Assembly (NCBI GenBank): GCA_963766685.1
Contig: CAVYBJ010000024.1
Coordinates: forward strand, 101,844-165,843
DNA: 64,000 nucleotides
DNA from: an uncultured Chloroflexia bacterium
GTDB lineage: Bacteria; Chloroflexota; Limnocylindria; Limnocylindrales; CSP1-4
Direction: 5' to 3'
In this document: positions 53,311 through 58,496 of the stretch, one piece after another
Layout of the letters: every line of letters begins with the position of its first letter
Numbering within the stretch: the first letter of the stretch is position 1
Notes under the pieces: model-generated
Told to the model about the DNA's origin: nothing
The model's database searches: none
Seen by the model: only the letters and a program-made list of their open reading frames with translations
Program-made: the position numbers and the translations under genes

Positions 53311-53517
53311 CTGTCCTGCCTATTCGTTCGTGATGCGGGGCCATCTGGCCCTAGCAAGACTCTATCCTCAAGTCACAGCGTAGGAATCGCTGATCCGACG
53401 GGATCGTGCCGCTCGAACCGTTCGGCACGGACCCTTCGGACCCGTCCCGACCCGGCTCGATCCGCCGGGCCGTCGCGATGGGAGCCTGGACGAACCCTTG
53501 GAGCTTCGGAGGATGTG

Positions 53518-55005
53518 ATGCGACGGCTGGGACTCGAGCGCGACGTGGTGGACCCTGATGTGTATCGGCGGACCGTGGAGCGCTTCCGCGAGGCCGGCAT
53601 CGTCATGCCCACCTTCGCCCAGCTGGCCGACCCCTCCACCATCCCGGTCGGCATCGCGGCCGAGGTTCGCGACGTCGAACCCGATGCTCCCCACCCGCGA
53701 AACCTCTTCCGCGCCCACTGGTACAACGGCTGGGGCTCCCCGGACCCGCTGGGCCTTCCCGAGCACGTCGTCCTGCCGTCGGAGCTGACCGGCGTGGCCT
53801 CGCCCATCGTCGTGCTCCTGGGCGACCGCTTCCCCATGATCCACTCGCACAAGGTCATCGCCGCCTACGGCTGCCTCGCGCCGCGCATCGTGACCGGCCA
53901 GTTCGACCCCACCAGCCAGCGTGCCGTGTGGCCCTCCACGGGCAACTACTGCCGTGGTGGCGTGGCCATCAGCCGCATCATGCTGAGCCACGGCGTGGCG
54001 GTGCTGCCGGAGGGCATGAGCCAGGAACGCTTCGATTGGCTGATGGCCTGGGTGGCGGACCCCTCGGACATCATCCGCACGCCCGGCACGGAGTCCAACG
54101 TCAAGGAGATCTACGACAAGTGCGCCGAGCTTGACCGCGATCCCGACACCGTCATCTTCAACCAGTTCTCGGAGTTCGGGAACCACATCGCCCACTACGA
54201 GATCACCGGTCGCGCCATCGAGCATGTCTTCGAGTCGCTCTACGAGCAGGATCCCAGCCTGCGCCTGGCCGCCTTCACCTCCGCCACCGGCTCGGCCGGC
54301 ACCATCGGCGCCGGGGACTACCTCAAGGATCGCCACGGCTCGCTGACGGTGGCCGTGGAGGCCCTGGAGTGCCCCACCCTGCTCCGCAACGGCTACGGCG
54401 AGCACAACATCCAGGGCATCGGCGACAAGCACGTGCCGCTCATCCACAACGTCATGGCCACGGACATCGTGGCCGACGTCAGCGACCGGGCCACGGACGG
54501 TCTCTTCCTCCTCTTCAACACGGACGCCGGGCGGGCCCACCTGCGCGACCGCATGGGCGTGCCCGAGGCCACCATCGCGGCCCTCGCCTCCTTCGGCTTC
54601 TCGTCCATCTGCAACGTCCTGGCGGCCATCAAGGTCGCGAAGCAGCAGCAGCTCGGTCCGCGCGACGTCATCGCCACGGTGGCCACGGACGGCGCGGAGA
54701 TGTACGCCTCGGAGGTCGGCCGCCTCACGGCGCGCGACTTCCCGGGCGGCTTCGACGCCGCGGCAGCGGGCGAGGTCCGCGCCGCCTTCCTGGACGCCAT
54801 CGACACGTCGGACATGCTCGAATGCGGTCGCGAGGAGCGCGACCGCATCTTCAACCTGGGCTACTACACCTGGGTGGAGCAGCAGGGCGTGCCGCTCGAT
54901 GAGTTCGAGGCCCGCCGCAGCGCCGACTTCTGGGCCGAGACCCGCCAGATCGTGCAGCAGTGGGACGCCATGATCGCGACCTTCAATGCCGAGGTCGCCG
55001 CGTGA
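53518..55005 (+). CDS. fold-type-II PLP-dependent enzyme, divergent cysteine-synthase-like with C-terminal extension
   Basis: Intact. GGAGG lies 5 nt before ATG 53518. Aligns by eye to the CysK/CBS pattern: MIHSHKV (Lys), STGNYCRGG (the TSGNTG loop), [41 protein letters not shown] and [11 protein letters not shown]. Confidence 0.7.
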
Positions 55006-56441
55006 CCCTGGCCGGGCCGGCCAGCCAGCCGGCGAGCCGGCTGGTCTGCGGGGGCTGCGGCGCGGAGGCGGCTGGGCAGCCCTTCGCGGCACGCTGCCCG
55101 GCAGCTGCCGAGGGCGATGACACCGACCACGTCCTGCGACGCGTCCTGGACCCGGGAGCCATCGACCGGCACCCGGACCCGGACCCCAACCCCTTCGTGC
55201 GCTACCGCACGCGTCTCCACTCCTGGCACGTGGCACGCGCGGCCGGCTGGAGCGACGAGCGCTTCGTGGCGCTCGTGCGCGAGCTCGACGAGGCCGTCGC
55301 AGCCGTGGACGGCCACGGCTTCCGGGCCACGCCCGTGGTGCGCTCTCCCAGCCTGGACCGGCAGCTCGGCTTCAGCCCGCAGGGCGGCCTGTGGGTCAAG
55401 GACGAGACCGGCAACGTCTCCGGCTCGCACAAGGCGCGGCACCTGATGGGGGTCATGCTCGGCCTTCGCGTGGCTGAGGACCTCGGCCTGGCGGACCCCG
55501 CCGCCCCGCTGGCCATCGCCAGCTGCGGCAACGCGGCCCTGGCGGCGGCCGTCGTGGCCCGCGCGGCCCGGCGTCGCCTGCTCGTCTTCGTGCCGCCGAG
55601 CGCTGAGGCCCCGGTCGTGGAGCGCCTCCGCAGCCTGGGCGCGGAGATCGAGGTCTGCGAGCGCCAGCCGGGACAGGCCGGCGACCCCACCTACCACCGG
55701 CTCCTGGCGGCCATCGCGGCCGGCGCCGTGCCCTTCACCGTCCAGGGCAACCTCAACGGCCACACCATCGAGGGTGGCGCCACCCTCGGCTGGGAGCTCA
55801 TCGACCAGCTGCCGGACCGCGCCTCCGGCCTCGACCGACTCATCGTCCACGTCGGCGGGGGCGCCTTCGCCGCCGCACAGGCGCTGGCCTTCGAGGACGC
55901 CCACTCGGCCGGGCTCATCGACCGCCTGCCGCGAATGGACACCGTCCAGACCCAGGGCGGCTTCCCGCTGGCACGGGCCCATGCCCTCGTGCTCGACCGC
56001 CTGGGCGTGGCGGCCGGGGAGGTCGTCCCGGCCGATGCGGTGGAGGCCGGCCTGCGCGATATCGCGGCCCACCGCTCCGACTACATGTGGCCGTGGGAGA
56101 CCGAGCCCCACAGCCTCGCGCATGGCATCCTCGATGACGAGACGTACGACTGGCTGGCCGTCGTGCGTGCCATGCTGCTGACCGGCGGTCGCTGCGTCGT
56201 GGTGGACGAAGCCACGATCGAGTCCGCCAACCAGCTGGCGCGCCCGGACCTCGGCATCGATGCCGACCACACGGGCACGGCCGGCCTGGCCGGCCTCATG
56301 TCGCTCACTCGCGACGGCCTCGTCGAAGCCGATGAGACCGTGGCCGTGATCTTCAGCGGCGTCCGACGCTCGTCGGGCGCCGGCAGCACCGCCGCCGGCG
56401 ACACCGATGCCGGCGCACCAGCCCCCCACAGGGAGGAGTAA
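55002..56441 (+). CDS. fold-type-II PLP-dependent enzyme, threonine-synthase-like
   Basis: Intact. The GTG overlaps the upstream stop (GTGA 55002-55005). Contains [18 protein letters not shown] (Lys), [22 protein letters not shown] and HTGTAGLAG. Confidence 0.7.
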
Positions 56442-56448
56442 GGACCCC

Positions 56449-57405: not shown

Positions 57406-57424
57406 CCCCCGCCCGTCGCGCGCT

Positions 57425-57489
57425 GCTGGCGCCAGCCACGTGTGCTGGCGCCAGCACCAGCGCCGGCGCCATCGGTGCGCGCCGGCGCC
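57425..57489 (+). promoter_or_regulatory. pair of strong palindromic hairpins in the spacer between the two transcarbamylase genes
   Basis: GCTGGCGCCAGC-CACGTGT-GCTGGCGCCAGC (57425-57455), then GCGCCGGCGCC-ATCGGTGC-GCGCCGGCGCC (57460-57489). Confidence 0.5.
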
Positions 57490-57518
57490 CGACCGTTCCA
57501 CACGAGGAGGATACCCCG

Positions 57519-58496
57519 ATGCAGACCGGACTCCGCGGTCGAGACCTCATCGACCTGTCGGATTGGACCAACGAGGAGATCGAGACCGCGCTGGACGTGG
57601 CCTTCGACCTGAAGCGCAAGCGGGCCCTGGGCGAGGCCCACCCCTACCTGCGCGACCGCGTCCTCTCCATGCTCTTCTTCTTCTCCAGCACCCGCACGCG
57701 CGCCTCGTTCGAGGCCGGCATGGCCCAGCTGGGCGGGCACGCCATGTTCATCGAGAGCCGCACCACGCAGATCGCGCACGGTGACACGGCCACCGAGATC
57801 GGCGAGATCCTGGGTCGCTACAGCGACGGCCTCGCCATCCGCCACGTCACCTTCGGCGAGGGCAACCAGTACATCCGCGACGTGGCCGCCGCCAGCCGGG
57901 TGCCCGTGCTGAACATGCAGTGCGAGGTCTACCACCCCTTCCAGACGCTGGCCGACCTGATGACCATCATCGAGAAGAAGGGCAAGCTGCGCGGCCAGTC
58001 GATCACGGTCAGCTGGGCCTACGCGGCCAGCTACCAGAAGCCCATCAGCGTGCCGCAGTCGCTCATCCTGGCGGCCACCCGCTTCGGCATGAACGTCAAG
58101 CTCGTGCACCCGCCGGAGTTCCAGCTCATGCCGGAGATCGTGGCCCAGGCAGAGGCCAATGCCGCGCGGTCCGGCGGCTCGCTGGAGAAGCTGGACGACT
58201 TCGACGCCGGCTTCGAGGAGGCCGACGTCGTCTACGCCAAGTCCTGGGGCGCGCCGCTGCTGGGCGTCTCGGACGAGGAAGGCGCCAAGATCGCGAAGCA
58301 GTACACCGACTGGATCTCCGACGAGCGGCGCATGGCGCTCACCCGCGACGACGCCATCTGGATGCACCCGCTGCCGGCGGACCGCAACGTGGAGGTCGCG
58401 GACGCGGTCATCGACGGCCCCAAGTCGGCGGCCTTCGACGAGGCCGAGAACCGGCTCCACGCCCAGAAGGCGGTCATGGCCCTGACGATGGGCTGA
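57519..58496 (+). CDS. N-acyl-ornithine-type (AOTCase/SOTCase/YgeW-clade) carbamoyltransferase-like protein
   Basis: Intact 325 aa. GAGGAGG lies 8 nt before the ATG. Contains FFSSTRTRASFE and VYHPFQTLADL. VVYAKSWGA stands in place of DxxxSMG, and HPLPADRNVEV in place of HCLP. The tail DEAENRLHAQKAVMA matches my memory of Xanthomonas N-acetylornithine transcarbamylase. Confidence 0.75.
   Translation: MQTGLRGRDLIDLSDWTNEEIETALDVAFDLKRKRALGEAHPYLRDRVLSMLFFFSSTRTRASFEAGMAQLGGHAMFIESRTTQIAHGDTATEIGEILGRYSDGLAIRHVTFGEGNQYIRDVAAASRVPVLNMQCEVYHPFQTLADLMTIIEKKGKLRGQSITVSWAYAASYQKPISVPQSLILAATRFGMNVKLVHPPEFQLMPEIVAQAEANAARSGGSLEKLDDFDAGFEEADVVYAKSWGAPLLGVSDEEGAKIAKQYTDWISDERRMALTRDDAIWMHPLPADRNVEVADAVIDGPKSAAFDEAENRLHAQKAVMALTMG

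Follow-up and report, generated by a model that had tools for sequence, protein, structure and literature searches.

Four consecutive genes on the forward strand of contig CAVYBJ010000024.1, from an uncultured Chloroflexia bacterium, probably constitute the lower module of reductive urate/2,8-dioxopurine degradation in an environmental (soil Chloroflexota-type) version. They lie in a 64-kb stretch of the contig, here called the window, and are referred to by the working labels g1 to g4; L001, L002 and so on designate related loci from genome and metagenome scans. The four genes are the following.

53518-55005, + strand: g1, ATG start, 495 aa, CysK-like fold-type-II pyridoxal phosphate (PLP) enzyme
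55002-56441, + strand: g2, GTG start, 479 aa, threonine-synthase/serine-racemase/dehydratase-like PLP enzyme
56449-57405, + strand: g3, GTG start, 318 aa, carbamoyltransferase resembling aspartate carbamoyltransferase (ATCase)
57519-58496, + strand: g4, ATG start, 325 aa, short YgeW-like ('knotted'-type) carbamoyltransferase

In other genomes, orthologous modules are accompanied by SsnA, a ring reductase, a molybdenum (Mo) enzyme and carbamate kinase, and these neighbours link the module to the reductive urate pathway. The module is most likely an uncharacterised variant of a pathway known since 2025, and neither an orphan pathway nor a housekeeping set. The analysis shows which genes are present, how they are conserved and placed together, how motifs have changed and which folds are assigned; every substrate and every reaction proposed below is one that we infer. 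The comparison points to a lower half of reductive urate degradation that is assembled differently and widespread in environmental phyla, and to four uncharacterised enzyme families; two of these are transcarbamylases in which the pocket for the second substrate is new.

The reductive urate (2,8-dioxopurine/yanthine) pathway of Escherichia coli and Clostridia was solved in 2025 (PMC12507026; bioRxiv 10.1101/2025.04.24.650524; PMC12990295), and has been portrayed as belonging to gut and host-associated anaerobes (PMC12990295). The E. coli cluster comprises xdhD-ygfM, ygfK, ssnA, hyuA, ygeW, yqeA, ygeY as well as ygeX (PMC12507026; bioRxiv 10.1101/2025.04.24.650524). Reduction of urate by XdhD gives 2,8-dioxopurine, YgfK and SsnA act on the pyrimidine ring, which is dearomatised and opened, and HyuA opens the hydantoin to 2,3-diureidopropionate (DUPA); YgeW then phosphorolyses one ureido group of DUPA to carbamoyl phosphate, from which the carbamate kinase YqeA makes ATP, YgeY hydrolyses the other ureido group, and the PLP enzyme YgeX converts 2,3-diaminopropionate to pyruvate and ammonia (PMC12507026; bioRxiv 10.1101/2025.04.24.650524; PMC12990295). 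Liu et al. have the 3-ureido group removed first, unlike Li et al., and Percudani lists the order as an open question. Li et al. reported SsnA in Chloroflexota and Actinomycetota together with an F420 luciferase-like reductase. In their SsnA neighbourhoods 'YgeW' and 'YgeX' were scored only as PF00185 and PF00291, so that the two-PLP/two-transcarbamylase module was left unseparated, and our literature search found no description of it.

A first-pass annotation of the window had proposed a dedicated pathway in which PLP chemistry is coupled to two carbamoyl transfers, and, as one option, N-heterocycle catabolism begun by the Mo enzyme encoded next to g1. Both ideas are supported by the clusters around the orthologues, which contain SsnA, YgfK, the Mo enzyme and carbamate kinase and are of the reductive urate type. 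It had also envisaged either synthesis or breakdown of a ureido amino acid; that such a compound is handled still stands, and synthesis is disfavoured because the genes conserved beside the module are catabolic. The E. coli ygeW/ygeX/xdhD cluster had been set aside as different, and this does not hold: that cluster encodes the reductive urate pathway, and operons orthologous to g1-g4 sit in such clusters. The statement that no characterised pathway has this exact gene set remains correct for the set itself, for which no match was found, but not for the type of pathway.

The order g1-g2-g3-g4 recurs in many genomes, far beyond chance. Relatives of g1 were detected by a genome scan in no fewer than 583 species-level genomes, from Chloroflexia, Acidimicrobiia, Myxococcota/'delta', Alphaproteobacteria, Planctomycetota and Acidobacteriota, and the module extends across several phyla, with identities of 55-90%. 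The open reading frames (ORFs) of 83 loci seeded with g1 were clustered. A g2 gene adjoined g1 in 71 of these loci, the Mo enzyme was present in 38, SsnA in 31 and g3/g4 in 19-21; F420-type luciferase-like (LLM) reductases (12 loci), YgfK (8), D-hydantoinase (8), carbamate kinase (7), M20 carbamoylase (5), PydA-like proteins (4) and CN-hydrolases (4) were less frequent. An independent metagenome scan was seeded with SsnA instead of g1 and gave 40 loci of at least 8 kb, of which 18 contained g1, 16 g2, 13 g3, 13 g4, 11 carbamate kinase and 21 an F420 LLM reductase; YgeX was found in only two. This second scan included single-strand operons such as g1-g2-g3-[carbamate kinase]-Mo-SsnA-LLM-xanthine dehydrogenase (XDH)-g4-carbamate kinase.

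When both scans were pooled, 35 loci of at least 12 kb carried SsnA and g1. All 35 had g2 next to g1, 34 had the Mo enzyme and 25 a reductase, and neither YgeX nor YgeY was present in any of them. The first-pass annotation had suggested checking by genome neighbourhood whether the four genes and the Mo enzyme are co-conserved; on long contigs the four-gene block recurs in divergent orientation to this Mo enzyme. Seventeen of the 35 loci had transcarbamylases only, eight had hydrolases (M20 or CN-hydrolase) only, two had both and eight had neither; transcarbamylases and hydrolytic decarbamoylases are therefore largely alternative.

Individual loci show the same association. In L001, whose g1 and g4 are 78% and 91% identical to those of the window, the Mo-enzyme gene is followed by SsnA (NF005540, 452 for a cutoff of 444) and YgfK (TIGR03315, 880 for 835), divergent from g1-g2-g3-g4. 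In L164, a classical XDH, a PydA-like gene, SsnA and the Mo enzyme are divergent from g1-g4. A carbamate kinase gene lies directly 3' of g4 in L002, L165 and others, and the arcC model is passed in related loci (360 for 358). At the position otherwise held by YgfK, PydA-like or F420 reductases, L002 (4142-6073) and L165 (4307-6115) encode a protein that is about 600-640 aa long and contains several 4Fe-4S motifs; it may be another type of ring reductase or an electron-transfer partner. A second, distant SsnA-like amidohydrolase, about 30-34% identical to SsnA of L001, was observed in L090, L103 and L112 (upstream of g1), L093 and L101; it often lies immediately upstream of g1 and may substitute for the frequently missing HyuA-type hydantoinase.

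One hybrid locus, L106 (1-11589), has the order YgeY - diaminopropionate (DAP) ammonia-lyase - g1 - g4 - carbamate kinase - Mo - SsnA, and is the only locus in which genuine YgeY (family score 477, cutoff 321) and YgeX (DAP ammonia-lyase 386, cutoff 276) were found together. YgeX and YgeY stand there in place of g2 and g3, while g1 and g4 are kept. In L081, g1 is paired with a YgeX-like gene; no adjacent g2 was seen in L106 or L081. These two loci suggest that g4 corresponds to YgeW, g3 to the YgeY step and g2 to YgeX, g1 being an extra function.

The following scheme can be proposed. The divergent Mo enzyme would carry out the first reduction, g4 would phosphorolyse one ureido group of DUPA, and g3, with a remodelled second-substrate pocket, would phosphorolyse the remaining N-alpha-ureido group, replacing YgeY. 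Both ureido groups would be recovered as carbamoyl phosphate, potentially yielding 2 ATP per urate, which suggests a more energy-conserving solution than that of the gut pathway. The PLP enzymes would take the C3 amino acid to pyruvate, with g2 in YgeX's place, and g1 would add a further reaction, which the gut pathway lacks: elimination or replacement at the beta position of a beta-N-substituted alanine (albizziin or diaminopropionate). The comparison also brings g1 to light as a conserved PLP enzyme. A wider and distinctly more tentative proposal is that soil and aquatic Chloroflexota, Actinomycetota, Myxococcota and others possess a distinct 2,8-dioxopurine pathway that is often linked to F420 and probably not confined to strict anaerobiosis. 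Two new transcarbamylase subfamilies would there convert both DUPA ureido groups to carbamoyl phosphate and double the substrate-level ATP yield, the g1 step would remove, for example, urea or ammonia from albizziin or diaminopropionate, and the YgeW-type enzyme would take the 3-ureido group first, as the ATCase-like architecture of g3 would imply.

On the basis of its sequence, g4 is a candidate 2,3-diureidopropionate phosphorylase. It has the OTCace_N and OTCace domains, is 35% identical to E. coli YgeW (192 bits), and shares with YgeW the motifs QIAHGxT, NxQC..HPxQ, SWAYxxSYxKPxSVPQ, KSW and LPAD, unlike ornithine and acetylornithine carbamoyltransferases (OTCase and AOTCase); it is 70 aa shorter than YgeW and lacks the YgeW insertions. 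AOTCase (ArgF') and g4 have in common the 'YAKSWGA' motif and the knot-loop region, but g4 lacks the long 80s-loop insertion and the ornithine-site motif DxxxSMG, and carries 'HPLPAD' in place of HCLP. Its scores are below the cutoffs for AOTCase (257, cutoff 288) and OTCase (253 for 306 and 244 for 281), and the putrescine carbamoyltransferase cutoff is likewise missed.

The g3 protein also has the OTCace_N and OTCace domains; it is 41% identical to the Pyrococcus abyssi ATCase and only 21% identical to E. coli YgeW. It passes the NCBIfam ATCase model TIGR00670 marginally (242.9 for a trusted cutoff of 236.95), and automatic pipelines would therefore probably name it aspartate carbamoyltransferase. 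ATCase binds aspartate through R167, R229, Q231 and K84 (E. coli numbering). The fold and the carbamoyl-phosphate motifs STRTR and HPxQ are common to PyrB, ArgF', g3 and g4, and the carbamoyl-phosphate site is kept in g3 (STRTR, HPTQ and the R167 equivalent). In contrast to PyrB, the 'TRIQKER' motif that contains R229 and Q231 is changed to a conserved 'EPVVQAD', and the 80s-loop 'KKGE' to 'TRAGDFYxES' with loss of the lysines (K84), across 19 orthologues; the pyrB gene of the window itself retains 'TRVQQER'. From these motifs, g3 is a candidate for phosphorolysis of the second (2-)ureido group. The enzyme from which g3 descends carbamoylates an alpha-amino group, and g3 no longer has the residues by which the carboxylates of aspartate are held; its most natural substrate would therefore be 3-amino-2-ureidopropionate. 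This would fit the order of Liu et al. over that of Li et al., which is suggestive only, and provides comparative evidence on which ureido group goes first.

It is barely credible that the four genes are housekeeping paralogues adjacent by chance, g3 being a spare ATCase, g4 the OTCase or AOTCase of arginine synthesis, g1 a cysteine synthase and g2 a threonine synthase. The narrow ATCase pass of g3 and the source annotations, which are generic ('cysteine synthase' for g1, 'threonine synthase' for g2), speak for it. Against this, g3 lacks R229 and Q231, which the true pyrB of the window has retained; g4 is without DxxxSMG and HCLP and scores below all OTCase and AOTCase cutoffs; the scores of g1 and g2 are lower than the CysK and ThrC cutoffs by a factor of 4-5; and the four-gene order is conserved beside purine-catabolic genes. 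Neither g3 nor g4 is in a pyr or arg context. The earlier view that neither transcarbamylase is a housekeeping enzyme agrees with these results, and 'cysteine synthase', 'threonine synthase', 'ATCase' and 'OTCase' annotations in such clusters are probably wrong.

Of the two PLP enzymes, g2 matches Pfam PALP with 120.6 bits (gathering score 35), has the PLP-lysine motif 'SGSHKAR' and a Cys-rich segment at its N-terminus, and misses all NCBIfam equivalog cutoffs, the best match being ThrC (86 for 303). Its AlphaFold model (predicted local distance difference test, pLDDT, 87) is nearest in fold to serine racemases, threonine synthases and threonine deaminases. g2 is a candidate functional replacement of the DAP ammonia-lyase YgeX. 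Orthology of g1 or g2 with YgeX was considered and rejected, as BLASTP against E. coli YgeX gave no significant match (E > 0.08), and no DAP ammonia-lyase structure was found for either protein among the Protein Data Bank (PDB) sequence matches or the top 50 fold matches.

The most conserved member of the module is g1: the best 120 of 8000 database matches were all at least 70% identical and came from Chloroflexota and Actinomycetota metagenome-assembled genomes. It falls below the Pfam PALP gathering score (30.5 bits), and its best NCBIfam match is CysK-like (TIGR01139, 75.6 for a cutoff of 351). The motifs SHK, STGN, NQF, SATGSAG and QGIG are invariant. Cysteine-synthase features are seen in g1, namely the PLP-lysine, the Asn-loop, Q142, the phosphate-loop motifs and the fold, and the best PDB folds for its AlphaFold 2 model (pLDDT 89) are cysteine synthases (template-modelling score about 0.78 on target). 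Thus g1 has the catalytic motifs and fold of CysK, but it differs from CysK by its low score and by helical extensions of roughly 100 aa at the N-terminus and roughly 95 aa at the C-terminus. By comparison with CysK and other beta-substituted alanine synthases (cystathionine beta-synthase, beta-cyanoalanine synthase) and with YgeX, g1 and g2 plausibly catalyse elimination or replacement at the beta position of a C3 amino acid. Long homologues of g1 that might have been Rosetta-stone fusions proved to be an assembly duplication (P0034) or to have over-extended N-termini.

The g1-g2 pair was also observed in seven Ilumatobacteraceae-type loci (L051, L053, L060, L063, L069, L073 and L074), among SmpB, MurI, RNase PH, RdgB, ClpP, ComM and XerC genes; a fold-type-III D-serine-dehydratase-like gene adjoins g1-g2 there and no purine genes are nearby. 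In loci of this type, a separate ordinary CysM/CysK-like gene lies 3' of a JAB (Mec-like) gene.

The Mo enzyme and the region that separates it from g1 were annotated as follows.

50604..53310 (50604 end about), - strand: fused 2Fe-2S/molybdopterin hydroxylase, XdhAC/'Se_dep_XDH' TIGR03311 type
53311..53517, no strand: divergent control region, 207 bp, 64% GC compared with 72% for the window

One frame of the Mo gene contains the Pfam domains Fer2, Fer2_2 and Ald_Xan_dh_C, and the other Ald_Xan_dh_C, MoCoBD_1 and MoCoBD_2. The encoded enzyme is 77% identical to the intact L001 orthologue, and the full-length L106 orthologue scores 984 on TIGR03311 (cutoff 830). Fused FeS-Mo enzymes of this type have about 850-880 aa, and their size and architecture match those of Clostridium sporogenes XdhAC/DOPDH; identity with E. 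coli XdhD is 27-29%. On these grounds, the Mo enzyme is a candidate for the reduction of urate to 2,8-dioxopurine.

The same catabolic machinery might instead serve another N-heterocycle, such as another oxopurine, a 5-substituted hydantoin, a dihydropyrimidine or a pyrimidine analogue, with the Mo enzyme acting as a hydroxylase and a different ureido amino acid as intermediate. Such a substrate would account for marine Acidimicrobiia loci in which g1-g2 occur with a D-hydantoinase (500, cutoff 393), a distant amidohydrolase, an ABC transporter and a YqeC-like gene and with no Mo enzyme; the PydA-like, dihydropyrimidinase and CN-hydrolase neighbours of other loci resemble the reductive pyrimidine pathway, and the Mo enzyme shares only 27-29% identity with XdhD. 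However, SsnA and YgfK of L001 exceed equivalog cutoffs, the Mo enzyme is of the TIGR03311 type and resembles XdhAC/DOPDH, many clusters contain a classical XDH, which would supply urate, and g4 has YgeW-specific motifs. We consider another heterocycle unlikely.

Several observations weigh against a role of g1-g4 in urate degradation. None of SsnA, YgfK, F420 LLM, PydA-like reductase, hydantoinase and carbamate kinase was found in the window, and in the closest subclade (L003, L005 and L008-L010) the Mo-enzyme gene is followed by unrelated genes (M23 peptidase, transporters). In the window itself, the - strand genes downstream of the Mo gene encode an M23-peptidase-domain protein (48618-50414) and an ABC exporter (ABC_membrane plus ABC_tran, 46241-48016); they occupy the position of SsnA and YgfK in L001, which suggests that the upper-pathway genes were lost or relocated in this lineage; SsnA may be encoded in another part of the genome. 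The Mo gene of the window has one frame break, near 52640-52703, while its orthologues are intact; a sequencing error is plausible, or the gene may be a pseudogene. No pathway step is matched to g1, the swaps of g2 with YgeX and of g3 with YgeY come from one or two loci, and urate as the real heterocyclic substrate is a point that we infer. On the YgeW model NF005538, g4 scores 188 for a cutoff of 453, and its raw score is equally close to OTCase/AOTCase. Finally, the g1-g2 pair is also found where no purine genes are near, as among Ilumatobacteraceae housekeeping genes, so that it may act on a more general amino-acid substrate.

Synthesis of a ureido amino acid (albizziin or a carbamoylated diaminopropionate) for a natural product was also considered. 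Transcarbamylase equilibria favour ureido formation and CysK-like enzymes make beta-substituted alanines, both established facts, and genes for nonribosomal peptide synthetase (NRPS)-like Condensation and AMP-binding proteins lie 3' of g4 in L001, L004, L006 and L007. These NRPS-like genes are, however, convergent with the module and confined to that one Chloroflexia subclade, the conserved partners are catabolic (SsnA, ring reductases, Mo hydroxylase, carbamate kinase, hydrolytic decarbamoylases), and the phylogenetic spread of the module is as for primary metabolism. Biosynthesis is accordingly highly improbable.

Degradation by a variant of the reductive urate pathway, the reading that we favour, implies both likeness to and difference from the known clusters. 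Like the E. coli cluster, the module has a Mo hydroxylase beside it, the YgeW-like g4 and fold-type-II PLP enzymes at the pathway end, the SsnA, YgfK and carbamate kinase of orthologous loci pass or reach their family cutoffs, and the predicted logic, from ureido phosphorolysis to carbamoyl phosphate and ATP, is the same. Unlike it, the module has no YgeY or YgeX, its two PLP enzymes have no significant similarity to YgeX, and it includes a second, ATCase-like carbamoyltransferase. The reductase of related loci is often F420-dependent LLM or PydA-like, the Mo enzyme is of the TIGR03311 and not of the XdhD type (TIGR03313), the module is carried by soil and aquatic Chloroflexota, Actinomycetota and Myxococcota and not by gut anaerobes, and the window is without the upper-pathway genes.

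Clostridial variants (C. sporogenes XdhAC (DOPDH) and DOPOR; Clostridioides difficile UacX and UacY) have the fused FeS-Mo architecture, and their reductases have a parallel in the PydA-like (DHO_dh plus Fer4) proteins of some related loci. They also show that steps can be swapped, as with phosphorolytic YgeW and hydrolytic UacY. These clusters nevertheless retain both YgeY and YgeX, with one carbamoyltransferase at most, whereas the swap in the module is the opposite, from a hydrolase to a second transcarbamylase. In arginine deiminase, agmatine and oxalurate-type couples, a catabolic transcarbamylase similarly works by phosphorolysis, with carbamate kinase drawing the reaction forward and forming ATP; their substrates are different, and here two transcarbamylase subfamilies are encoded in one operon.

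The layout of the block is as the first-pass annotation had described it. The four same-strand ORFs are intact (no internal stops), their GC content at third codon positions is 0.92-0.97, and Pfam and NCBIfam agree with the family calls. Inspection of the sequence and folding confirmed the junctions: g1 and g2 overlap by GTGA, 7 nt separate g2 from g3, and a hairpin-rich spacer of 113 nt stands between g3 and g4. GGAGG-type ribosome-binding sites are found 5' of g1, g3 and g4. The divergence from the fused 2Fe-2S/Mo hydroxylase over an AT-richer region was likewise recovered, as was a genuine pyrimidine ATCase gene elsewhere in the window: pyrB lies on the - strand at about 62.8-63.9 kb, reads in several frames and has the canonical motif 'YWTRVQQERF', with pyrC-like and pyrD-like matches adjoining it. 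Those two were the sole matches when the rest of the 64 kb was searched for the SsnA, reductase, hydantoinase and carbamate kinase genes named above and for M20, YgeX, YgeY and YqeB/C, none of which was found; the matches to ring reductases were all pyrD-like. An insertion 3' of g4 in L010 was ruled out as a carbamate kinase gene on inspection.

Scans for sigma-70 promoters and for intrinsic terminators gave no matches. The leader and the spacer have no credible Rfam match to a riboswitch or other known RNA, and the leader alignment is without convincing covariation. In the divergent control region, a perfect palindrome, GGGCCATCTGGCCC, is located at 53338-53351, about 28 nt from the start codon of the Mo enzyme, and is invariant across nine aligned loci. 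Twelve related loci (L001, L003-L005, L007-L010, L039, L045, L098 and L102) each have a single copy of the pattern GGGCCA-NN-TGGCCC, in the same place between the Mo gene and g1. The palindrome is a candidate operator; no regulator gene was identified for it.

The remaining feature separates the two transcarbamylase genes.

57406-57518, + strand: g3-g4 spacer, 113 nt, 79% GC, two strong hairpins (folding z = -3.6)

The palindrome GCTGGCGCCAGC occurs twice in it, at 57425 and 57444, and the spacer could possibly be an internal attenuator, an RNA-processing site or a small repeat. As it is missing in the closest relative, L010, and as the g3-g4 gap is 9-16 nt in L001, L002, L164 and L165, it looks like a lineage-specific insertion.

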